Shown here one piece after another: positions 1-10,288 of a DNA stretch of 10,288 nt. The notes below the pieces were generated by a model. That model ran no database searches and was not told the origin of the DNA. It saw only the letters and a program-made list of their open reading frames with translations. The DNA comes from a virus, in UHGV virus genome UHGV-0355879; one strand, written 5' to 3'. Within the stretch, counting starts at the first letter, position 1. Each line of letters opens with the position of its first letter. Position numbers and translations under genes: made by a program.

Positions 1-1150
1 GATATAACTCATGCAAGTTATTAAACATTACTTTGAAAGCACTACTTATTATTTCATCTGATGTTGCTGAGAATGCCTTTATCAAATGCTTGCTAAAAGA
101 TTGGTTAATTTTTGATTTTTGTAACTCACTACTCAGCATAGCTAACAAGTCAAAATCTTTTAAAGATTCCTTTATCTCTTCATATTCCTCTATCGCATTT
201 GCTGAGTAAGGATCGAATCTTATAGGAAGACTCATAAATTTAGCCTTCATAGGAGATTCTTCATCTTCATCATTACCATGCAACTTAGCTTTAGTTACTG
301 AAAGGAACTCTTCTTTAGTAACAATATTGGTTTTTTGTTTCTGTAAAGTTAGCCCTTCATTTTCCATCAGTTTTTTACTAAGCAAAGTTAAAATCTTATG
401 AGCATCCTCTCTAGAGTTACAAAAAATAACAAAGTCGTCGACATAACGCTTATAGTTGATTCTATTCATAGACAATAATTTATCAATAGAATCTAGAGCT
501 AGTTCTGCTAATATTCTAGAGGCAGGACATCCAACTGGTACTCCATATGATTTTGTTTCACTAAATGTCTGTAGTAATTTCTTGATTTTCCCAGAGTAAT
601 CTTTATTGGGGTCGACTCTATCTAACGCATTTTCTAAACGGTGGTGATAAATACGCGGATAGAAATCTGCTATATCGCATGTAAGTACATACTTTATTTC
701 ATCGTTAGAACATTCAGAGATACTGTCTTCTTGATATTTTCTCCAAGAGATCTCTTTATCAAAAAGAGAACCATCAGCAAGGTTTGGTTTAAAGCGATAT
801 GAATAAACCTGCGTTTTAGTAGATCTATTCCTTTCAATATCATCAGCGATTTTTAAAACTAACCCAAGAAAAAAAGCATTCCAGAATGGATCAATTTGGG
901 TCGCCCACCTGTAACCATAATAACCAATACTTGAAAAGCTATTAATTATGTTTGGTGGAATCTCGATCCTTTTATTTTCAAAGTCATTAAATGTTTGCAT
1001 TAATGCAGTTTTTACTTTCTCCTTATCATCTTCAAATAACCGACTTTCAAATGGGTAAGGGAAAATATCTGTATCGCCGTGCTTTATAATATTTTCCAAT
1101 GCAAGCTCAAAGCAATTTTCTAGTTTACTACTATCAAACTCGTTACTCAT
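1..1150 (-). CDS. Reverse transcriptase, Abi/DRT-like (partial; C-terminal part lies beyond the left window edge)
   Basis: Absent from the ORF track because it runs off the edge. Minus-strand ATG at 1150..1148, open with no stop through position 1 (383 codons). Translation starts MSNEFDSSKLENCFELALEN. RT motif A-like TCDIADFYPRI (codons 650..676), motif B-like GVPVGCPASRILAELAL and catalytic motif C RYVDDFVIF (YVDD codons 434..445) were checked at nucleotide level. Start overlaps the integrase stop (ATGAGTAA, 1143..1150). Confidence 0.6.
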   Translation of the reverse strand, partial: MSNEFDSSKLENCFELALENIIKHGDTDIFPYPFESRLFEDDKEKVKTALMQTFNDFENKRIEIPPNIINSFSSIGYYGYRWATQIDPFWNAFFLGLVLKIADDIERNRSTKTQVYSYRFKPNLADGSLFDKEISWRKYQEDSISECSNDEIKYVLTCDIADFYPRIYHHRLENALDRVDPNKDYSGKIKKLLQTFSETKSYGVPVGCPASRILAELALDSIDKLLSMNRINYKRYVDDFVIFCNSREDAHKILTLLSKKLMENEGLTLQKQKTNIVTKEEFLSVTKAKLHGNDEDEESPMKAKFMSLPIRFDPYSANAIEEYEEIKESLKDFDLLAMLSSELQKSKINQSFSKHLIKAFSATSDEIISSAFKVMFNNLHELY

Positions 1151-2327
1151 TCACATTCTCCTTAATAAAAATATAATCTGAATACCACTGCATCATATCA
1201 CGGCGTTTATCAATATATTGAGCATGATTATACGTACCTCTAATATTATTCTTATCTATATGAGCAAGCTGTATTTCTATCCAAGCCGAATCATATCCTT
1301 TTTCGTGGAGGATAGTAGATAAGGAATGTCGAAATCCATGACCAGTAAGTTTTCCACCATAACCAATACGCTTGATAACTTGGTTAATACTCGCCTCACT
1401 CATAGGCTTGTTCGGATCGTTCCGCCCCGGAAAAACATAACTATACTTCCCTGTCATCATCTTGAGTTCATTTAGCAAATCTAACGCTTGAGTCGACAAA
1501 GGCACAAGGTGTGATCTGCGCATTTTCATCCTTTCAGCAGGAATTTCCCAAATAGCGTTATCTAAATCAAATTCTGACCATAATGCCGCACGTAATTCGA
1601 TGGTTCTAACACCTGTAATCATGAGCAATTTCGTGGCAATCAGGACAAGCCGACTTCCGGTATATCCGTTTAAGGCGCGAAGAAAATCAGGTATCTCATT
1701 AGCCTTTAAGAACGGGAAATGATTTGATTGGTGTACATTGAGGGCGCTTGAAAGATCCGCAGCAGGGTTAAACTCAGCCCTTCCAGTAGCAATGGCATAG
1801 CGGAAAACTTCTGAGCATCGCTGCCGAACTTTGCGCATTTTTTCTAATGCACCGCGCTTTTCGATTTTACGCAGCACATTAAGCAGTTCTAGCGGTTTAA
1901 TCTCTCCCACTGGCCTTGTTCCCACATAAGGAAAAATGTCGTTCTTAAACGCTTCCATGATGTCTGATGCATATCCCGCCGACCATTTGGTAGACTTCTG
2001 TTGATGCCACTCTCTGGCTATCTTTTCGAAGGCGTTCTCTGACTCTGTTTGCAGAGCCAGCTTTTGCTCTTTTCGAACCTCACTAGGGTTCTTTCCTTCT
2101 GCCACAAGTTTTCGAGCTTCATCACGACGGGAACGAGCATCAGCAAGAGTGATCGTTGGGTAAACACCAAGCGAGATCATTTTGGGTTTACCGGCATAGC
2201 GATAACGAAATCGCCAGCTTTTACTTCCATTTGGCTCTACAAGTAAAGACAACCCTTGCCCATCCCCAAGTGTATAGGCTTTAGCTTCAGGTTTAGCACG
2301 GCGAATCTGCATATCATTTAGGGGCAT
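1143..2327 (-). CDS. int: Tyrosine integrase, P4 / CP4-57 (IntA-like) family
   Basis: 394-aa ORF. N-terminal arm-binding region (MPLNDMQIRRAKPEAKAYTLGDGQGLSLLVEPNGSKSWRFRYRY) is typical of P4-type integrases. C-terminal catalytic signature present: R in GVRTIELRAALW, HGFRHSL box, LAHIDKNNIRGTYNHAQY with catalytic Tyr. Recalled E. coli IntA shares long stretches (AERMKMRRSHLVPLS vs AARMKMNRDHTVPLS; MMQWYSDY vs MMQWWADL). Confidence 0.85.
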   Translation of the reverse strand: MPLNDMQIRRAKPEAKAYTLGDGQGLSLLVEPNGSKSWRFRYRYAGKPKMISLGVYPTITLADARSRRDEARKLVAEGKNPSEVRKEQKLALQTESENAFEKIAREWHQQKSTKWSAGYASDIMEAFKNDIFPYVGTRPVGEIKPLELLNVLRKIEKRGALEKMRKVRQRCSEVFRYAIATGRAEFNPAADLSSALNVHQSNHFPFLKANEIPDFLRALNGYTGSRLVLIATKLLMITGVRTIELRAALWSEFDLDNAIWEIPAERMKMRRSHLVPLSTQALDLLNELKMMTGKYSYVFPGRNDPNKPMSEASINQVIKRIGYGGKLTGHGFRHSLSTILHEKGYDSAWIEIQLAHIDKNNIRGTYNHAQYIDKRRDMMQWYSDYIFIKENVNE

Positions 2328-2379
2328 GTGTATAGAATTCCAAAATCGAACAGGAACATATACATAATCCTATACACAT
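2326..2379. repeat. Imperfect 14-bp inverted repeat (ATGTGTATAGAATT / AATCCTATACACAT) overlapping the integrase start codon
   Basis: Arms at 2326..2339 and 2366..2379, 13 of 14 positions complementary, 26-bp spacer. The left arm overlaps the int start codon (2325..2327). Candidate operator, Int-binding site or att-proximal element. Confidence 0.3.
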
Positions 2380-2649
2380 TTAGTACTGGATTCTACTGGA
2401 AAGTTATGGACTAATACGAACAGTAAAAACAAAAAATCTTTTATAAAACAGTGCGGTTATGGATAAATACGGATGTTTGAAGAAGTGGAGATGGTGCCGA
2501 TAATAGGAGTGTAACACGCGATAAATCTTGTGTTCGGGTCTTCTTCTACGACCTTCGCAACTACCTGATTTAACGATTTTTACGCACACTGATAATCTGG
2601 CATTCATCATGCACATGATAAACGCCCCTAAACTTTAACGGGGTGGAAA

Positions 2650-3864
2650 ATGAAATACAAGCCGGATCAATACATCATCTCTGATAGTTACGGAGTTTAT
2701 TACGTCAGGATCTCAATTCCTATATGGCTTCGTAATGCATTTGGTGGAAGAAAAACTCTCGTCCGTAGTCTGAACACTTCCGATCTTCGTGTGGCACGTA
2801 GGAAGCGTGATGTTATAGCAGACGAGTTTCACCACATCAGGCAAATTGCAGAGCCACCAAAACCGGACAGCCTGCAGGACACAATCAGCTATCTAAAGAG
2901 CGTTGCTAAGTACGCAAAAGCTGCCCCGAAAGCATCAGCGCCAATTATCTCCCAATGCCCCTCTCTGAATAAGATGTTGGAGATTTACCTCACGCATAAC
3001 GCTGATCGCCTGAAAATTGGAACATTAAGCAAGACCAGGAAAGCCGTAGAACTGTTTCTGAATTACCTGCGAAAGAAGGATGTGGAACTAAACGATATCA
3101 ACCGTACCACCGTTACAGGCTGGCTTGATCATCTCCGAGAAACAAAGGCAGTCCAAACAGTGGCTAACTATCTTTCTGCAATGGCAAACATTCTCGATCT
3201 TGCCTCTTCCCGATACCAGGACGCCCCACAGCTGGAAAGTAACGTATTCAGAGGGCATAAACTCAACACAGCGCAGAGCCGCCAGAGTTACGAGGCATTC
3301 ACGGACGAAGAAATTACGAAGCTCATTAGCACGTTTAACAAGTTAGGAGAGGACGAATTAAGGGATTTAAGCGCCATAGCCGCTTATAGCGGAATGCGCA
3401 TCAATGAAATAGCCAGTTTGAAATCTGACAATATCCGTGAAGTTGAGGGGGTGTTATGTTTCGATGTATTGGAAGGAAAGACAGCTAACGCTTCCAGGCT
3501 AATCCCATGCCATAGTGCGATTAAAACAATGGTCCTGGAACGCTGCCAGAAGCCGCACAACGGCTTTTTATTTTACCGTGCAAGTGTGACCAAGAGAGAG
3601 GACGGCAAGCGCTCCTCATGGCACGTAAACCGCTTTGGACGGCTTAAACGCGATATTCTCCCAGGGCAAGAAAACAAGGTGTTTCACTCGTACCGCCATG
3701 CCGTGATCAGTAAGCTAAACGCCGCCGGAGTGGATGAATCTCGTATTGCCTTGCTCGCGGGCCACTCATTTGGAGAAACTGAATCTTTCAAGACGTATTC
3801 GAAATCCGTTCCTGAGCGAATAGTGAAGGAACTAAAAGAATATATCGAATTAATCAAATATTAA
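2650..3864 (+). CDS. Tyrosine-type site-specific recombinase / integrase (second, unrelated to the P4-type one)
   Basis: 404-aa ORF, GGTGGA-like RBS 4-5 nt upstream. N-terminus (YYVRISIPIWLRNAFGGRKTLVRSLNTSDLRVARRKRDVIADEF) matches the arm-binding pattern of genomic-island integrases. Catalytic residues in SGMRINEIASL (Arg), HSYRHAVISKL (His-x-x-Arg), LLAGHSFGETESFKTYSK (His, Tyr). Confidence 0.8.
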   Translation: MKYKPDQYIISDSYGVYYVRISIPIWLRNAFGGRKTLVRSLNTSDLRVARRKRDVIADEFHHIRQIAEPPKPDSLQDTISYLKSVAKYAKAAPKASAPIISQCPSLNKMLEIYLTHNADRLKIGTLSKTRKAVELFLNYLRKKDVELNDINRTTVTGWLDHLRETKAVQTVANYLSAMANILDLASSRYQDAPQLESNVFRGHKLNTAQSRQSYEAFTDEEITKLISTFNKLGEDELRDLSAIAAYSGMRINEIASLKSDNIREVEGVLCFDVLEGKTANASRLIPCHSAIKTMVLERCQKPHNGFLFYRASVTKREDGKRSSWHVNRFGRLKRDILPGQENKVFHSYRHAVISKLNAAGVDESRIALLAGHSFGETESFKTYSKSVPERIVKELKEYIELIKY

Positions 3865-3878
3865 AATACCTTAAATGT

Positions 3879-3908
3879 GAGGGGGAATCCCCCTCTATTT
3901 TATTTATA
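3879..3908 (+). terminator. Rho-independent terminator, probably bidirectional, between convergent genes
   Basis: Perfect 7-bp G/C stem GAGGGGG (3879..3885), loop AAT, CCCCCTC (3889..3895), then T-rich TATTTTATTTATA. Lies 15 nt after the integrase stop; the A/T-rich flank on the other side lets it serve the minus-strand gene ending at 3900. Confidence 0.55.
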
Positions 3909-4178
3909 CCATACACTTTGCATATATTGCGATGTTTCAGATGAAATATTATACCAATATGCATAATTATTTGTTGCATCTACAACTATCAATTTATCAT
4001 CACTATCCATCGCTTTATGAACTATTTGCGATGCCTGTTCAGAATTGTAATGTGAATTAACATACCAATTTGATTCTGTAACTTTGACTGCTACGCCCAA
4101 TGATTTAATAGCTTCGTAAACTGCTGGATAGTTTTTAGTTTTGATCAAGTCATAGGTTACAAAAAGATTGTTAGCCAT
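3900..4178 (-). CDS. Hypothetical small protein (92 aa), AT-rich
   Basis: ORF with GGAGAG RBS 7 nt upstream of ATG at 4178. Local G+C about 25% (hand count of 3901..3960), unlike neighbouring genes. No family recognised with confidence. Confidence 0.5.
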   Translation of the reverse strand: MANNLFVTYDLIKTKNYPAVYEAIKSLGVAVKVTESNWYVNSHYNSEQASQIVHKAMDSDDKLIVVDATNNYAYWYNISSETSQYMQSVWYK

Positions 4179-4197
4179 TTTATTCTCTCCAGAGATT

Positions 4198-4226
4198 CAA
4201 AAGAATAAGCGCCGCTATAGGCGCTT
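4198..4226 (-). terminator. Possible intrinsic terminator / stem-loop
   Basis: 7-bp stem AAGCGCC (4207..4213) / GGCGCTT (4220..4226), 6-nt loop. On the minus strand it follows the small ORF stop (4237) and is followed by ATTCTTTTG. Confidence 0.3.
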
Positions 4227-4236
4227 TGAGATGTTT

Positions 4237-4365
4237 TTATTTCTTAGCTTTCTTGGTAGGGATTTTGATAGTTTCAGTTACCGTAGTGTCAGGATGTCTT
4301 TTAGCTTCAATGGGCTTAACAAACTGACCAGTTATCGCAGAACGAACTACTGTTTTCTTAGCCAT
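4237..4365 (-). CDS. Hypothetical small basic protein (42 aa; MAKKTVVRSAITGQFVKPIEAKRHPDTTVTETIKIPTKKAKK)
   Basis: Internal ATG (4365..4363) of track ORF 4237..4467, preceded by GAGGT RBS 5 nt upstream. The longer 76-aa form would start inside the upstream terminator hairpin and lacks an RBS. Lys-rich, low complexity; could be non-coding. Confidence 0.3.
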   Translation of the reverse strand: MAKKTVVRSAITGQFVKPIEAKRHPDTTVTETIKIPTKKAKK

Positions 4366-4442
4366 AAAACACCTCATCTTGGAGATAAAGAGTGAACTGC
4401 TTACCCTTTTAAGAATAAGGGACAAACGAAGCGGCGTCAAAG

Positions 4443-4491
4443 AAAAAACACCACATATACACATCATTTACAAAACAAGCGCAATATGTGG
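4443..4491 (-). terminator. Candidate intrinsic terminator downstream of the 623-aa gene
   Basis: 8-bp stem CCACATAT (4451..4458) / ATATGTGG (4484..4491) with a long 25-nt loop, followed on the minus strand by TGTTTTTTCT (plus-strand A-run 4443..4448). Begins 26 nt after the stop at 4517. Confidence 0.35.
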
Positions 4492-4516
4492 TATCTCCAT
4501 GCGATTTACATCACAA

Positions 4517-6388
4517 TCACCCCCCTGTGCTGCTCTGACCGCTCAAGGCTGACAAGGTGAGCGACTGTGTAAAACTGGCTTGTGAGGCTCTCGCCTGGAA
4601 ATCAATGTAATCGCTCAGCCTTGAGCTATCGCTGGCGATAGTTAGCGGAACAGACGCTTCAAGATTGAGATTGAATACAGGTGCAAGATTGTACGCTGGC
4701 GCACTATTGGTGCTGGTTAGGGATGATATAGCAGAATCACGAAGCGCTCCCCCTTTCAGAGAATCACCATTCAGGCCGTATTGTTCTACCGCTGTCCCTG
4801 TAGGCTGATCATCTATCCCTAACCAACCTTTAACGGCATGACCTACACTACGGCTGTCCCACCCTGTCTTGTCCTGCACCCAATCGGCAGCACTGTTGGC
4901 ACTTCCTGTAACAGCACCATCATACAAACTCTGTGCCGCTGGCTTATCGCTACCAGTGAACCATTGAGGGAAACGTTCTTTCAGCCCTGCATTGATATCA
5001 CTCACAACACTGGAAATCTCACCCACAAACCCAGTGATTTCTTTCGAGAGATTGCCTAAGCCCTCTCCAAGCATTCCCGCCGCTTCGGTGATAATTTTGG
5101 TTTTCCTTACCAGATCGTCGCCCCCATCGGCAAAGCCTTTCATCCAGCCTGTAAACAACTGATTGTCTATTCCATTCATCAGATTACCCATAGCAACACT
5201 CAAATCGCCATACTCATAAACCTGCTTGATCATTTCGTCGTTCAGCGTCTGACCGGACTCAATGAGAGTTCTTAGCGTCTTGTTATACTCTGCACCGTTG
5301 TTCATGAACATATCGGTGTAGTGCATCAGGTCATCACCTAAACTCTCAATCAGCGTACCAATCTGAGCCTGTGACATACCACGGCGTTGCCCTTCATTCA
5401 CCGTAGCTTGAACAAAATCGAGTGGTGAATCTTGGAACTTGGAAATCTGATCCTTACTCCATCCAAATTTGTTCATTATCGACGTAATGCCACCATCCCC
5501 ACCCTTCCATTCGCCATTCTTCATTTGAGCATCGTTAACAGTCATGGCGAGGCGTTCACGCACATCTTTCATGTTATCGACGGCTTTTGAGGTATTAGCT
5601 GAATCAACACCGTGTTGCTGTCCCCAGGCCACCATCGTTTTTATGGCGTTTGGGTTGGTTTTCACACGTTCACTCATTCTCACCAGTTCGAGGTTATCAT
5701 TCCCTTTGTCAATAATTCGCTGCCCCACTCCGAGGGAGCCAGCCGTTAACGCAAGGCTTCCTAATACCCCACCACCGACGATAGGAGCATTCCCGCCCTT
5801 CTGAGCCTTTAGCTTAGTGGCTGCTGCGGCATACTGGGTACGCTGTGCCTGTGTCACTTTGGCTTGCTGTGCGGCTTCTCTGCGTAACAGGGTTACACGC
5901 TCACGAATAGATGCGTTCATACGGGCACTGGTCAGATTGCCTTTGGCAAATTCCTCTGTTTGCTGACGTATGAAACGTAACGCTTCATATTGAGATTTAG
6001 GATCAAGTCCGTATTTACCTTTAATTCCTGACACTTGTAGCCCTGCATGGCGAAGTTTAAGCTCGGCTGTCTCTTGGTGCTTCTGTAGCTGCTGCTTCGC
6101 TTTCAGATTGGCCTTTTCATCCCTGGCTTTCTGCTTCTCTGCCGCACGTTGGGCTTTCATTTCCTTCGTATCACGAGGTTTATCATTAAAACGTGCATCA
6201 TCGGCTTGTTGACGAGCTTTCTGTCTGCGCTGCTTCTGAGCCTGGAAGCGAATCTTGGGATCGGCTATTTTCTGGAAGTGCTTTTGAAGGTTATCCGCTG
6301 CGGCTTTAGCCAGAGCAATGCTCTGCTTATCCACCACGAATGTAACCGTATTGCGGATCTGACTGACCGAAATATCAAGCATCGCCAC
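4517..6388 (-). CDS. Large phage structural-like protein, tail tape-measure-like (tentative)
   Basis: 623-aa ORF. Lys/Gln/Arg/Ala-rich predicted coiled-coil N-terminal third (KQRRQKARQQADDARFNDKPRDTKEMKAQRAAEKQKARDEKANLKAKQQLQKHQETAELKLRHAGLQ), then a Gly-rich hydrophobic segment (GGNAPIVGGGVLGSLALTAGSLGVGQ) and repeated G-x-G stretches. The track start is GTG at 6388; an in-frame ATG at 6382 with GAAAGG 8 nt upstream is the more likely start and makes an ATGCTTGA overlap with the preceding gene's stop. Confidence 0.65.
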   Translation of the reverse strand: MAMLDISVSQIRNTVTFVVDKQSIALAKAAADNLQKHFQKIADPKIRFQAQKQRRQKARQQADDARFNDKPRDTKEMKAQRAAEKQKARDEKANLKAKQQLQKHQETAELKLRHAGLQVSGIKGKYGLDPKSQYEALRFIRQQTEEFAKGNLTSARMNASIRERVTLLRREAAQQAKVTQAQRTQYAAAATKLKAQKGGNAPIVGGGVLGSLALTAGSLGVGQRIIDKGNDNLELVRMSERVKTNPNAIKTMVAWGQQHGVDSANTSKAVDNMKDVRERLAMTVNDAQMKNGEWKGGDGGITSIMNKFGWSKDQISKFQDSPLDFVQATVNEGQRRGMSQAQIGTLIESLGDDLMHYTDMFMNNGAEYNKTLRTLIESGQTLNDEMIKQVYEYGDLSVAMGNLMNGIDNQLFTGWMKGFADGGDDLVRKTKIITEAAGMLGEGLGNLSKEITGFVGEISSVVSDINAGLKERFPQWFTGSDKPAAQSLYDGAVTGSANSAADWVQDKTGWDSRSVGHAVKGWLGIDDQPTGTAVEQYGLNGDSLKGGALRDSAISSLTSTNSAPAYNLAPVFNLNLEASVPLTIASDSSRLSDYIDFQARASQASFTQSLTLSALSGQSSTGG

Positions 6389-6572
6389 CGCCTTTCTTAC
6401 TCACCAGATAATTAAGTGCATCTGATACACTACGCCCACGATGTAATAACTGACGTAGATGACCGTGATCTATTTCAAGCACACGACACACTCCCGCCAG
6501 ATTTAATAACTCTTCTGCTGTTTCAGCATTTACGGCGAGGTGAAGCCCCGCGCTTTTTACAATCACTTGCAT
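6375..6572 (-). CDS. Hypothetical protein (65 aa)
   Basis: ORF with AGAGGA RBS about 8 nt upstream of ATG at 6572; immediately downstream of the capsid-operon terminator; stop overlaps the start of the 623-aa gene. Same orientation as the surrounding operon. Confidence 0.45.
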   Translation of the reverse strand: MQVIVKSAGLHLAVNAETAEELLNLAGVCRVLEIDHGHLRQLLHRGRSVSDALNYLVSKKGGGDA

Positions 6573-6596
6573 TTATCTTTCCTCTTATTCTGGAAA

Positions 6597-6630
6597 TAAA
6601 AAAGGGCGGGAACACTGGGGAGATGTTCCC
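6597..6630 (-). terminator. Rho-independent terminator downstream of the major capsid gene
   Basis: 7-bp stem GGGAACA (6608..6614) / TGTTCCC (6624..6630) with 9-nt loop; on the minus strand followed by GCCC then T7 (plus-strand A-run 6597..6603). About 65 nt after the capsid stop (6694). Confidence 0.5.
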
Positions 6631-6693
6631 AACGTTCACACGCCCTATTCAAAAGCCTGATTATTGCCTGCGGGTCAGGCTCCCGCTTGCTCA

Positions 6694-7725
6694 TTAAGCA
6701 GTGATGGTGATCTTCACTTGCATACCTAACGCATGGTTCACTGGTAATGCGCTGTTTTCGTGCATAACGTGGTAAGCATCGCCGCGCTCGCTCAGGTAGC
6801 CCCAAGAGTAGTATTCAGCAGGTGCAGCATCGATCAGCGCGAAGTTGCCAGAGGCAGCGCCGTAGATGTTCTGATAAGCATTTGTGCCTTTACTGAATAC
6901 CGGAACCGCCACCATGTCAGCATCATCTGGCATCTGTGCAAGGATCAGCGGATCTGTCACTTTAACAATGTCGATAGGCGCACCAGGTAGGCTAAACGTA
7001 CTAACACCAGGGAGAAGCTCGTGACGCTGGTAGAATAGGTTACGGTCGTCATATGGCGCTACATACTGGAACGCCTTAGACATACTGTCAGAGAAGCGAA
7101 TCTGGCTAAATGCAGCAGGTTTAGCGAATACGATCACTCGTTCAATCTGTCCAGCCAATCCACCTGCGGCAGCCTGAACTTTGTCTAAGATGGCATCAAA
7201 ATCCTGTGCCGCTGTCGCTGTGCTCACGCTGGCTGTCATTGGCACCACACCGAACAGTTCAGCATAAGAGATCAGTAGGTCATCAGTTGCAGGCGTATAA
7301 ACTTCACCTTTGAACAGAGCACGGGCCAGGTAGGATTCACGGGTACGAAGATAGGCAATCTTATGTTTCCCTGTGTACTCGGTGTACAGGTCGGTAACGG
7401 TTTGCTCGTAGTCCGTGCCTTGCACCCTTTTCCCTTGTACGTCTACTGGTTTGAAGGTGTCTTCCCTCGCAAACCAAGGGATCTCCACCAAATATTCTTT
7501 ACCATTCTGACGCGCGGTAGTGTCGTGGCTTGATGAATAACGACTCTGCGGGGTGTTAAACAGGCTGTAGTTATCATCCAGAAGCTGTGTCACCACCACT
7601 TTCGGATTCTGAACACCTACCCCGTCGAAGAGGTCGAGAGCATTCATAAGATAGTTACGTTCCGGCAGAGCCTGGAAGATTGGCGCTAAATCGACCATCT
7701 CACGCCCAATTGCGATTTTACTCAT
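6694..7725 (-). CDS. Phage major capsid protein, lambda gpE-like family (tentative)
   Basis: 343-aa ORF (lambda E is 341 aa) with AAGGAAG RBS 8 nt upstream. Sits directly after a roughly 120-aa decoration-like gene, the D-E order of lambda-type head modules. Assignment is by size, context and composition, not by verified alignment. Confidence 0.55.
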   Translation of the reverse strand: MSKIAIGREMVDLAPIFQALPERNYLMNALDLFDGVGVQNPKVVVTQLLDDNYSLFNTPQSRYSSSHDTTARQNGKEYLVEIPWFAREDTFKPVDVQGKRVQGTDYEQTVTDLYTEYTGKHKIAYLRTRESYLARALFKGEVYTPATDDLLISYAELFGVVPMTASVSTATAAQDFDAILDKVQAAAGGLAGQIERVIVFAKPAAFSQIRFSDSMSKAFQYVAPYDDRNLFYQRHELLPGVSTFSLPGAPIDIVKVTDPLILAQMPDDADMVAVPVFSKGTNAYQNIYGAASGNFALIDAAPAEYYSWGYLSERGDAYHVMHENSALPVNHALGMQVKITITA

Positions 7726-7741
7726 TATTTATCTTCCTTGA

Positions 7742-8101
7742 TTAAGAGGTGAAGAATGGACGGCATACGAACCCTTTGGATTCGAGCGTGGTGATAGCTG
7801 CGGCGTGATTAGCTGCGTGCAGGTTGTCGGCTTTCAGTGCTACGAAGCTGCCAACATTAGGCGCACGTAGGACATTCACGGTTTTACCGTCGCCAGCACT
7901 CACGAAATCACTTACCACCACAAAGGCATCATCGCCGGAGGTGTATAGAGCGCCATCAGCGCCGATAACATCGCCGCATTCAATATCTGCTGGCAGGTCG
8001 AAAACACGGCCTTCTACGACTGCAAAAGAATCAGTGGCGTAGCTCACTACGTCAGTGAAACTCTTACGAATTGGGAAAAGTTCGGTTAGGTCTACAATCA
8101 T
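7742..8101 (-). CDS. Head decoration protein-like (lambda gpD-like, tentative)
   Basis: 119-aa beta-rich, Gly/Val/Ala/Asp-rich ORF immediately upstream of the capsid gene (stop 7742, capsid ATG 7725). Start overlaps the preceding ORF stop (ATGA at 8098..8101). Confidence 0.45.
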   Translation of the reverse strand: MIVDLTELFPIRKSFTDVVSYATDSFAVVEGRVFDLPADIECGDVIGADGALYTSGDDAFVVVSDFVSAGDGKTVNVLRAPNVGSFVALKADNLHAANHAAAITTLESKGFVCRPFFTS

Positions 8102-8313
8102 TGTTGTTTGATTTCCTTGGATTTGATTGCGATCCGTTCCTGCATACTAAGTTGAGGTGTGTCCTCAGAAGGGAAATACTGGTCTACAGCTTTTTCTATT
8201 TCTTCAACGGTACATCCTGCCATTTCAGCCACTTTAGCTATTAACTCAGGATTAACTTGAATCACTTCGGATTTGTATTTTAGGATTCGGTCGCGATTGT
8301 TTATTAAGAACAT
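8098..8313 (-). CDS. Hypothetical protein (71 aa), first gene of the head operon
   Basis: ATG at 8313 preceded by AAGGAA with a 7-nt spacer; stop coupled to the next gene by an ATGA overlap. Confidence 0.5.
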   Translation of the reverse strand: MFLINNRDRILKYKSEVIQVNPELIAKVAEMAGCTVEEIEKAVDQYFPSEDTPQLSMQERIAIKSKEIKQQ

Positions 8314-8384
8314 TGTGTTGTTCCTTCGCGTTATAACTGCGTTTATCCTTCCATTAATAACGGAAGTGTTACATGCAGATTGTT

Positions 8385-8406
8385 AAAAAGGGGCGATTAA
8401 GCCCCT
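8385..8406 (-). terminator. Intrinsic terminator / attenuator upstream of the head operon
   Basis: Stem AGGGGC (8389..8394) / GCCCCT (8401..8406), loop GATTAA; read on the minus strand it is followed by TTTT (plus-strand A-run 8385..8389). Lies about 75 nt upstream of the 71-aa gene start. Confidence 0.45.
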
Positions 8407-8932
8407 GGAGAATATGCCCTTGTTAGAAAGCATTCTGTTAAAATCATTTTCGTTTCGGAGGATTATGATGTTAAAGAAAGGTTTCTTGAAAAAATGAAGG
8501 GCGCAACTGTTACGAATAACAGAAGTAGGATCGCCCGTCATTGCTCCCACTTCAAAACAGAAGCCCTTCTGTCATGGCGAGAAGTGGGAATGGAATTTCT
8601 TATCACCCTGGAATAGTAATAAGAGATTGCCAGCCTGAACGTAACTACCACTGACGGCGTTTATTCAGTCTGACTGCTTATAATCCTAACGGGGTTATAA
8701 GGTTTAGAGCACGGAATATGCTCTCTGAAAGAGAATGTGCGCGGTGATTGTTCGTTACCACCCGACACAAGTGGGAACGCCCGCGCCACCCTTTGGAACT
8801 AAACACAACAAAGGAAAACAACCAGCTTTCAGAGAGGATATTCAATGGGAGAGAGCGCCGCCTATGGGAAACGGCATTCTCAGGGAGTGCGTATTGTTAT
8901 ACGAGGGTGGAGTGATTCTAATACCTACCCTA
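8407..8932 (-). ncRNA. Candidate long untranslated leader or non-coding transcript (hypothetical)
   Basis: Roughly 525 nt between a near-consensus promoter (8939..8967) and a terminator (8385..8406), no minus-strand ORF of 65 aa or more. Contains several stem-loops: two-tier hairpin 8545..8589, hairpin 8677..8701, hairpin 8706..8724, hairpin 8739..8786. A 9-bp direct repeat AAGTGGGAA (8582..8590, 8769..8777) sits in two of the stems. Confidence 0.2.
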
Positions 8933-8938
8933 TAACTT

Positions 8939-8967
8939 ATTATGACACAAATAGCACAATATGTCAA
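8939..8967 (-). promoter_or_regulatory. Sigma70-type promoter on the minus strand (-35 TTGACA, 17-bp spacer, -10 CATAAT)
   Basis: Minus-strand TTGACA (plus 8962..8967), exactly 17 nt of spacer, then CATAAT (plus 8939..8944). Lies 16 bp downstream of the stop of the 113-aa gene and points toward the head operon. Confidence 0.45.
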
Positions 8968-8982
8968 GATATTTCGTAATAT

Positions 8983-9321
8983 TTATGTTATAGCGCATTC
9001 TTCCGCGATCTGGATGGCAAGCTCTCCGAGTTCAACGGTGATGTGTTCCATAGCGAGGGCAAGCTCCTCCATATCATTGGCAATGCGCCACGCCTGATCC
9101 ACGGTGACGGTATCCCCGTTCATCTGCACCAGGTGCTCTACAGCAGCATTCCAGTGTTCAAGGGCGGTGATTGCCTGTTCAGTGTATTGCAGCGCTTCCA
9201 GGAGCGCGGAGGGCGTTCTCTCACACCACGCCCTATTAACAAGCCACAGGGCTGGTAGATGCCAAATATCGTGGAAATAGTTAATTAGGGTGTTCATGGT
9301 GTCCATAGTTTTATTATTCAT
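8983..9321 (-). CDS. Hypothetical acidic helical protein (113 aa)
   Basis: Shortened from track ORF 8983..9468. ATG at 9321 is preceded by AAGGAA with a 7-nt spacer (as for the 71-aa gene) and overlaps the upstream gene's stop (ATGAATAA), whereas the 161-aa form would overlap that gene by about 155 nt. Confidence 0.5.
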   Translation of the reverse strand: MNNKTMDTMNTLINYFHDIWHLPALWLVNRAWCERTPSALLEALQYTEQAITALEHWNAAVEHLVQMNGDTVTVDQAWRIANDMEELALAMEHITVELGELAIQIAEECAIT

Positions 9322-9697
9322 TGTTGTTTTCCTTGTCGTCAAAGAGAATATCAAAATCTTGTATGTGGTGAGATAAGCCGTTAGTTTGGGAATACCCCAC
9401 CCAGTCAACATAGTTTTCTGCGTATAGCTGCCACTTCTTAAGATTCGATGAATCAACACGGTATTCACGGCGGCGGCGTGGTTTATAGAAGACGTTATCC
9501 GAAGATGCTAAAACATCCTGCAATAGTTCAAACTCTGCCCCTACGGGCACCGTTGCAGGGTATTCTATTATTTCGGTGATCCATTCTCCTGGAATAGACT
9601 CTCGTGCGAGGTCTTGTAGAGAAGAGGTGTATTTACGTTTGCTGGCGCGAGTGGCTTTTTCGATTCTAACAATGTTACTTCGTTCTTTTCGTCCCAT
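9314..9697 (-). CDS. Hypothetical protein (127 aa)
   Basis: ORF with GAGGA RBS upstream of ATG at 9697; basic N-terminus (MGRKERSNIVRIEKATRASKRKY), acidic C-terminus; stop coupled to the next gene. Confidence 0.5.
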   Translation of the reverse strand: MGRKERSNIVRIEKATRASKRKYTSSLQDLARESIPGEWITEIIEYPATVPVGAEFELLQDVLASSDNVFYKPRRRREYRVDSSNLKKWQLYAENYVDWVGYSQTNGLSHHIQDFDILFDDKENNNE

Positions 9698-9710
9698 TCA
9701 TTCCTCGTAG

Positions 9711-9797
9711 AGGGAAACTTCCGTGTTTTCTCGTTAATGTCCATACTGCGTAAAATGCAAATAACCAATACATAGCGATGATCATAAAAGTTTCCCT
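9711..9797. repeat. Perfect 10-bp inverted repeat AGGGAAACTT ... AAGTTTCCCT flanking the promoter region of the 127-aa gene
   Basis: Arms at 9711..9720 and 9788..9797, perfectly complementary, 67 bp apart, in the intergenic region between the wHTH-like gene and the 127-aa gene. Confidence 0.3.
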
Positions 9798-9806
9798 ATT
9801 GTGTGT

Positions 9807-10091
9807 TTAGAAATTAGAGTAGATAAATTCTACATTGTCTCGTTCGATGTGTTTCAGCGTGAATGATAGATAATGGCTTTCATCGTCGATATCGATCACA
9901 CCAATGTTGCGCAGCGCACGAAGCCAGAATCTGATCCCGTTATCACTTACACTGGATTTATCAGATAGCTCTCCGTAAGAAATTTTAGTTTTTCTGCCCT
10001 TCCAGAACCAGATAAGCGCATAATAAACGCCCTTCCCGCTATCGTTGATCTGTATCTGGTTTGTGTTGTTCAATTTTATGTATTGTATCAA
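9807..10091 (-). CDS. Putative winged-helix DNA-binding regulator (94 aa)
   Basis: TTG start at 10091 with strong AGGAGG RBS 5 nt upstream; GISYGELSDKSSVSDNGIRFWLRALRNIGVI resembles a winged-HTH recognition region. Family not identified. Confidence 0.45.
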   Translation of the reverse strand: MIQYIKLNNTNQIQINDSGKGVYYALIWFWKGRKTKISYGELSDKSSVSDNGIRFWLRALRNIGVIDIDDESHYLSFTLKHIERDNVEFIYSNF

Positions 10092-10104
10092 TTAGTCCTC
10101 CTGA

Positions 10105-10288
10105 TTAGTTCCAGTGGCGTTGTATTGTGGCGATCCCTTTCTTCATTAGTTCAGCCGTTTGTCTTTGGGTCAATCCTTTGGATTTGTGTTCCTGTACTTC
10201 TTTACGGGTGTTGTTACCTTTAACTTTCTTTCTCACTTTCCCAAATTTCAGACATTCAATCTTTGCTCCAGGGAAATAATGCTCTTTG
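10105..10288 (-). CDS. C-terminal part of a protein ending in an HTH-like segment (N-terminus beyond the right window edge)
   Basis: Minus-strand frame open from the window edge to TAA at 10105..10107; translates ...KEHYFPGAKIECLKFGKVRKKVKGNNTRKEVQEHKSKGLTQRQTAELMKKGIATIQRHWN. The final 25 residues resemble a short C-terminal HTH. Not in the ORF track because it runs off the edge. Confidence 0.45.
   Translation of the reverse strand, partial: KEHYFPGAKIECLKFGKVRKKVKGNNTRKEVQEHKSKGLTQRQTAELMKKGIATIQRHWN

Follow-up and report, generated by a model that had tools for sequence, protein, structure and literature searches.

Two tyrosine integrase genes diverge from a 322-bp gap

The sequence analysed here, called the window throughout, is a 10,288-nucleotide stretch of the virus genome UHGV-0355879. 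Two open reading frames (ORFs) in its left half point away from each other: intA on the minus strand (1143-2327, 394 aa) and intB on the plus strand (2650-3864, 404 aa). The gap between them measures exactly 322 bp (2328-2649). A first-pass annotation made from the sequence had described head-to-head tyrosine integrases separated by this distance, with which both the ORFs and their Pfam matches agree. IntA has the arm-binding, central and catalytic domains of P4-type integrases (Arm-DNA-bind_3, 9e-28; Phage_int_M, 2e-35; Phage_integrase, 1.2e-25) and is 39% identical to the integrase (Int) of phage P4 over its full length (4e-105). IntB combines a DUF6538 N-terminus (6.9e-11) with a Phage_integrase domain (4.6e-11) and matches phrog_1 in PHROGs at 5.4e-34. 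BLASTP detected no significant similarity between the two integrases, the sole match being weak (E 0.034) and confined to 27 residues that include an H-x-x-R-H stretch.

We refer to the element encoding the P4-type integrase IntA as A and to the element encoding the DUF6538-type integrase IntB as B. In A, the gene for IntA occupies the tRNA-proximal end, and in B the gene for IntB occupies the tRNA-distal end; the position and orientation of IntB were alike in five relatives (L001, L003, L005, L011 and L014). Scanning 2250-2720 for promoters and terminators returned one promoter-like match, against 1.3 expected by chance.

The gap contains the 3' end of thrW

It had been noted that no tRNA-like sequence was evident in the gap, which would be unusual for a P4-type integrase. 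This holds for gene finders alone: ARAGORN reported 0 tRNAs in the window, and Rfam returned 0 matches at E ≤ 1. Exact comparison revealed instead that positions 2492-2510, read on the minus strand, are identical to the 3'-terminal 19 nt of the E. coli tRNA-Thr gene thrW (nt 58-76). Both tools were blind to this remnant because it is so short (19 nt). Since a tRNA 3' fragment is present beside IntA, the P4-type integrase is not unusual after all. Together with one additional base, the remnant makes up a 20-bp core, ATGGTGCCGATAATAGGAGT (2491-2510, minus strand), which is present in a single copy in the window where 0 copies are expected by chance.

The window carries only this internal core, and the outer att copies are known from its relatives. 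In strain XYEH3934 (L001), copies of the core bound element B, one at 6001 and the other within thrW at 19529. Strain CRE1540 (L003) has one core at the junction of its two elements and another in thrW, as well as a degenerate copy at A's far end by the chromosomal flank (L003 7392-7411). The degenerate copy reads ATGGTGC-GATAATAGGAAT, with one deletion and one mismatch, and A may therefore excise inefficiently in the CRE1540 lineage. The corresponding far-end core of A in strain A7 is perfect. By analogy with L001, an intact thrW would be expected outside the window, past its right end and about 11 kb away.

Each element occurs alone, and the site also occurs empty

We compared the window with 5426 complete E. 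coli genomes. Megablast never covered the whole window in one piece. B-only genomes matched positions 2491-10288 at 99.9-100% identity, and A-carrying genomes matched positions 1-2534 at 99.8%. The borders were refined with a 701-bp junction query, for which genomes having IntA immediately next to an annotated tRNA-Thr (L004) matched 2150-2510 at 100% and B-only genomes matched from 2491. Thus, the A-only and B-only homologies overlap exactly at 2491-2510. When aligned, the window equals a genome with A beside thrW up to the core, and a genome with the chromosomal flank beside B from the core on. Comparison with genomes lacking one or both elements had been proposed as a way of defining the junctions, and it places the borders of both elements at 2491-2510.

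The site was observed empty, singly occupied and doubly occupied. XYEH3934 carries element B between the yagP/paoD flank and thrW, with thrW adjoining proA. In CRE1540, the neighbor of element A is a diverged form of B, here termed B', and across genomes A was found paired with different variants of B. The empty attB, in which the flank is joined to thrW via one core, was present in 948 of the 5426 genomes and was 100% identical over 433 bp in two genomes. A complete head-to-head A-B' junction was present in 29 of the genomes, the sources of which included humans, chickens, pigs, dogs and wastewater. A synthetic query made of the far end of B', the core and the far end of A recovered the opposite order in two of the 5426. 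The map of strain A7 (L016 4236-28072) reads flank, IntB' and the remainder of B', core, P4-like element ending in its Int, and thrW, which places the integrases at the outer ends. Both array orders were seen, and therefore either duplicated core can take a second element.

The idea that the gap might hold abutting att sites, or the end of one element inserted beside another, is borne out by these genomes with A alone, B alone, neither, or both in two orders. That the two integrases are always housed in one syntenic element is contradicted by the single-occupancy genomes and by the opposite order.

None of the 5426 complete E. coli genomes has the exact A+B junction of the window, nor did a scan of species-representative genomes find it. 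It was recovered only from an independent metagenome contig, ERZ773149 NODE_1751 (L025 5380-10959), which contains positions 1-4910 of the window, including the junction, at 100% identity. The copy of B in this contig is without window positions 4911-9611, a 4.7-kb deletion that takes most of the tape-measure protein (TMP) homologue and the capsid gene described below. IMG/VR contigs matching the capsid protein of B were 21-63 kb long and contained the 20-bp core without the A-B junction; these contigs held no information on packaging.

A like head-to-head geometry exists in Citrobacter freundii at tRNA-Leu(CAA)/leuX (L014/L015 13967-16806). There, an intact tRNA comes first, then a B-like element whose last gene is the DUF6538 integrase, a 42-nt fragment of the tRNA-Leu 3' end, P4 arm repeats of the canonical type (TTGGGGGCAT), and an outward-reading P4-type integrase.

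The inverted repeat belongs to the attP arm of element A

The first-pass annotation had reported a 14-bp imperfect inverted repeat overlapping the start of the int gene. We found this repeat at 2326-2339 and 2366-2379, with 13 of its 14 nt complementary (93%). On its own the repeat is only modestly improbable, as 3 of 100 shuffled versions of the region had one of like quality, but its motif recurs in a P4-like pattern. Both repeat arms contain the 8-mer CTATACAC, of which element A (11.3 kb) has five exact copies, all within 250 bp of its ends. Measured from the start of the core, these copies lie at -221, -163, -121, +76 and +88. The -221 copy falls in the intA coding sequence (2270-2277, minus strand). 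The inverted repeat as a whole (2326-2379) consists of two opposed copies, the inverted -163 copy over the intA ATG (2328-2335) and the -121 copy (2370-2377). A degenerate tandem copy (2357-2368) sits beside the latter, and the +76 and +88 copies form a pair with 12-nt spacing.

This arrangement closely resembles that of P4. The GenBank record of P4 (NC_001609) annotates "attP arm sequence repeats" at -457, -163, -136, -124, +73 and +85, which surround a 20-bp core formed by the leuX 3' end; the -457 repeat is inside int and the -163 repeat is inverted over the int ATG. The arm layouts of A and P4 agree to within 3 nt. The motif is not the same, being CTATACAC(A) in A and TTGGGGGCAT in P4. Specifically, the repeats of A lie at near-equal distances to those of P4, including the inverted copy at the ATG and the pair spaced by 12 nt in the far arm, and in both elements one arm repeat is inside int. 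Element A has four to five motif copies, counted across the int side and the far arm, compared with six annotated in P4. Hence, A has the attP layout of P4-like satellites, namely a core with arm repeats on both sides, one of which overlies the int ATG.

By analogy with P4, the inverted repeat probably represents two arm-type Int-binding sites within a P4-type attP arm. It had been put forward as a feature of the junction, but it belongs to the int-proximal attP arm of A (2328-2490), which is also found where A adjoins intact thrW. This arm is identical in L004 and in the A-B' tandem of L003. In P4, Int represses its own gene through the arm site over the int ATG. The copy over the intA ATG would allow the same autoregulation in element A.

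Element B contributes the other side of the junction

To the right of the core, the int-proximal arm of B (2511-2649) is identical in the B-only locus L001. It contains a dyad, AACAC-N12-GTGTT (2513-2534), that is conserved in B'. Further along is a displaced 14-nt block of thrW, CTACGACCTTCGCA (2546-2559), which equals tRNA nt 39-52 and is kept in part in B'. There is also a candidate arm site, TAAACGCC (2619-2626); its inverted counterpart lies in the other arm of B, and the two covary in B'. The crossover must lie in the 20-bp core, because the left junction of B-only genomes consists of flank, core and B arm while thrW is intact at the right.

The thrW block is shifted by a 35-nt stretch standing in for 5 nt of the T arm, and the leuX-type relative has a like split tRNA-like structure (L014 15290-15379). 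Arms of the B type share an organization: a tRNA block comes first, ~33-35 unrelated nt take the place of 5 nt at a tRNA loop, and the tRNA 3' end closes the segment. The dyad sits within the inserted stretch of this split segment. The split thrW block may be what is left of an identity segment that was once longer, like the ~49-nt thrW repeat of CP4-6. A 70-aa ORF on the minus strand (2404-2616) had no Pfam match and was dismissed as a gene; it is chimeric because it runs across A's arm, the core and B's arm.

The junction is best explained by a tandem array at thrW

We conclude, with a probability of roughly 0.93, that two independent elements stand in tandem at thrW and that the junction is the att site internal to this array. 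Direct repeats of the tRNA 3' end bound the units, each unit has its own integrase, and both single occupancy and the empty attB occur in nature. Under the mechanism we propose, IntA and IntB, which have no significant mutual similarity by BLASTP, would both recombine within 2491-2510, and each integration would duplicate the 20-bp core. A second element could then enter either core copy, such that the array would be built by sequential site-specific integration. One core copy would stay between the elements, with A's arm (2328-2490) on one side and B's arm (2511-2649) on the other. Each element would be expected to excise via its own pair of cores, giving rise to the L001-type or the L004-type state. 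The int genes are head to head because IntA is tRNA-proximal in A, IntB is tRNA-distal in B, and the order of the array is thrW-B-A.

In view of the single-occupancy states found in nature and of both array orders, each unit can probably excise and integrate on its own, and may still be able to excise today. A succession of arrivals is likewise implied; in the relevant genomes, the three core copies are without polymorphism informative on the order of integration. The efficiency of excision may be affected because each internal site is flanked by foreign sequence on one side.

Arrays of this kind have precedents. Integration restores the core at both ends of an element, and a second element may enter either copy (Islander/TIGER, PMC7192596). 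Adjacent unrelated elements with a core repeat between them are known as tandem arrays and are established at tRNA genes (PMC7192596). In other arrays, preferences have been noted where an internal site has foreign sequence on one side (PMC7192596). The thrW case is alike in principle, with both orders seen, and the junction is an ordinary case of a known phenomenon that involves no new mechanism. The pairing of a P4-like satellite with an island encoding capsid and tape-measure proteins was without description in the literature searched.

Other explanations of the junction are far less probable. A single composite element with two internal, divergent integrases, whose actual att sites would lie well beyond the junction, is conceivable as a stable unit, given that 29 complete genomes of diverse hosts have A and B' head to head and that Citrobacter has a comparable pair. 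Against this, A and B each occur alone elsewhere with their border exactly at the core, A pairs with different B variants, the core between the elements derives from a tRNA, and both the empty site and the opposite order exist. We consider a composite element very improbable. The odds are slighter still that the gap is a shared regulatory region in which the inverted repeat serves as the operator of divergent promoters co-regulating both integrases. The genes are indeed divergent and the repeat does lie over one start codon. However, the repeat and the left 163 bp of the gap travel with A alone and are identical beside intact thrW, the motif appears twice more at A's far end with P4 spacing, the right 139 bp travel with B alone, and there was no significant promoter signal.

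An assembly chimera, in which contigs ending in the 20-bp thrW repeat were misjoined, merits about as little credence as shared regulation. The absence of the exact A+B junction from 5426 complete E. coli genomes would fit such an artifact, as would the position of the join at a repeated sequence. Yet modern assemblers are not misled by repeats as short as 20 bp, the identical junction is present in an independent metagenome contig (100% over window positions 1-4910), and analogous junctions are found in 29 finished genomes. The tandem array accounts for what appeared to be a P4-type integrase without a tRNA, as a 19-nt remnant hidden from tRNA finders nevertheless defines the att site. It also sets base-precise borders for two mobile elements. 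That such arrays form in either order matters for predicting what excises and spreads, and element A carries a DRT8 anti-phage system.

Element A is a P4-like satellite carrying DRT8

The window's share of element A is limited to int and part of the cargo. In CRE1540, where window positions 1-2534 are 99.8% identical, A is a complete P4-like satellite of 11.3 kb. This copy is annotated with alpha primase, DUF5375, Icd-like, delta and psu genes together with Vis, the last being 99% identical to P4 Vis (ORF88). The P4 core genes (alpha primase, epsilon, delta, psu, sid, vis) are annotated in the L003 element and fall outside the window.

Element A shares further features with P4. Its integrase has the three-domain architecture of P4 Int, int adjoins a tRNA gene in both elements, and the 20-bp core of A is also a tRNA 3' end that begins TGGTGCC. 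In contrast, element A targets thrW whereas P4 integrates into leuX, and the cargo of A is DRT8 rather than the gop/beta/cII genes of P4.

The cargo gene that enters the window encodes a DRT type 8 reverse transcriptase (1-1150, minus strand; coordinates from L003), of which the 5' part of about 383 codons is present before the gene runs off the window. The full 542-aa reverse transcriptase in CRE1540 matches PADLOC Drt8 at 4.9e-166, and its neighbor matches RTasPDDEXK, the PD-(D/E)XK partner, at 5.5e-69. This DRT8 pair is located between psu and int (L003 15011-17376). P4-like satellites with defense cargo beside int have reportedly been described before. The slot between psu and int in strain A7 holds a UvrD-helicase and ATP-dependent-nuclease pair instead of DRT8; this pair may be Gabija-like.

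Element B is neither a CP4-6-type prophage nor a capsid-forming PICI

Element B is ~13.5 kb long and is found in full in XYEH3934 (L001 6001-19548), with positions 2511-10288 constituting the part in the window. We considered whether B is a thrW prophage of the CP4-6 type. The cryptic prophage CP4-6 of E. coli K-12, which encodes intF, is like B in targeting thrW, in its yagP/paoD flank, and in having a tRNA-distal integrase. It differs from B in its thrW repeat, which is ~49 nt long and extends to the anticodon region (L027 13206-13280) as compared with 20 nt for B. There was no significant BLASTP similarity between IntF and IntB (E 0.056), and the gene content of CP4-6 is unrelated to that of element B. 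Lacking both an IntF-type integrase and the ~49-nt repeat, B was rejected as a CP4-6-type prophage. At thrW, the P4-type and DUF6538-type integrases share the 20-bp core, and the IntF-type integrase uses the ~49-nt repeat. Hence, thrW is a target for no fewer than three integrase lineages that lack significant mutual similarity, at two sublocations.

Three genes follow intB in the window, all on the minus strand. The first encodes a 92-aa protein of unknown function (3900-4178; phrog_1090) that is conserved in a Klebsiella relative (L011). The second encodes a 623-aa TMP homologue (4517-6388; phrog_16051, 4e-97) named "TolA" in RefSeq. The third encodes a major capsid protein of the lambda gpE type (6694-7725; phrog_29) that matches Pfam Phage_cap_E at 1e-13 over residues 2-328 of 329 and has homologues across Enterobacterales.

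In tblastn searches, residues 230-623 of the 623-aa protein were 40% identical to proteins of many Phapecoctavirus and Justusliebigvirus phages. It aligned end-to-end with the TMP of ESCO13, a Phapecoctavirus, at 31% identity (2e-88), and the ESCO13 TMP gene lies in a sheath-tube-chaperone-TMP-baseplate order. Judged by its sequence, the product of 4517-6388 is homologous over its full length to the tail tape-measure protein of these lytic myoviruses. In B', the gene at L003 20237-20914 encodes a 53%-identical homologue of the phage baseplate gene that comes next after TMP. Element B also encodes a DEAD/ResIII-type helicase and a 186-aa recombinase consisting of the catalytic domain only. A PDB sequence search with the helicase gave no match.

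In being a small, integrase-bearing island with its own major capsid protein, B is like the capsid-forming PICIs (cf-PICIs, e.g., EcCIEDL933). The cf-PICIs encode a protease, portal, head-tail connectors, HNH, TerS and TerL and are devoid of tail genes. B, unlike these islands, shows only the major capsid protein of the cf-PICI head set and possesses tail-gene homologues (TMP and Dit-like/baseplate). Pfam and PHROGs searches of ORFs of at least 65 aa in L001 and the window detected no portal, protease, connectors, HNH, TerS or TerL in B. Likewise, neither AlpA nor a primase was detected, such that B does not display the int-alpA-pri/rep module. With no match for the portal-to-TerL set in the Pfam and PHROGs searches, and with tail-gene homologues present, B is not a cf-PICI.

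Element B has relatives at several tRNA genes

The gene order of B is kept in Klebsiella, Citrobacter, and one metagenome contig of unidentified host, and the relatives of B are sited next to tRNA-Gly(CCC) or at tRNA-Leu(CAA). They share a tRNA-distal DUF6538 integrase with a short recombinase at the other end (the integrase end is not visible in L007) and a lambda-E-type capsid protein. Also in common are TMP and Dit-like homologues of Phapecoctavirus-type phages, with Kiwa in their place in one relative, and no detectable portal or terminase. B may tentatively be viewed as belonging to an undescribed family of ~13-kb, helper-dependent, satellite-like islands of Enterobacterales, though we hold this reading to be doubtful.

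No description of element B was found in the literature searched, which covered satellites in combination with thrW, Phapecoctavirus, Kiwa/capsid, and tape measure/distal tail. Papers on the ST131 "GI-thrW" name a thrW island without giving its gene content or function, and the Hochhauser defense-island paper makes no mention of thrW. The practical value of the analysis is that both elements are now delimited and that B is flagged as a possible new satellite-like family, which is the more interesting lead.

The tail-gene homologues of B could serve in hijacking of, or interference with, Phapecoctavirus-type phages. Members of the B family and P4-like satellites use common tRNA sites (thrW and leuX) and form arrays together in two genera; an interplay of the two satellite families at a single locus is thus conceivable.

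The ~13-kb metagenome contigs with B-like capsid genes were considered as excised circles and rejected, as they had no terminal overlap. One of them starts inside tRNA-Leu, and by eye its other end looks like an IS3-family transposase gene. Because of the missing terminal overlap, the start in tRNA-Leu and the IS3-like end, these contigs are best regarded as integrated copies on broken contigs.

In L001, a stretch of ~1.5 kb between the helicase module and the small recombinase is without annotated genes (15193-16759). ORF-free gaps of ~1.1-1.5 kb are found in the matching region of L003, L005 and L011. Rfam and repeat searches of the 1.5-kb stretch in B returned nothing notable. One relative of B (L005 9566-11108) has KwaA/KwaB (Kiwa) where B has its tail-gene homologues, between the genes for capsid and integrase, which suggests that this slot is a hot spot for cargo or interference genes.
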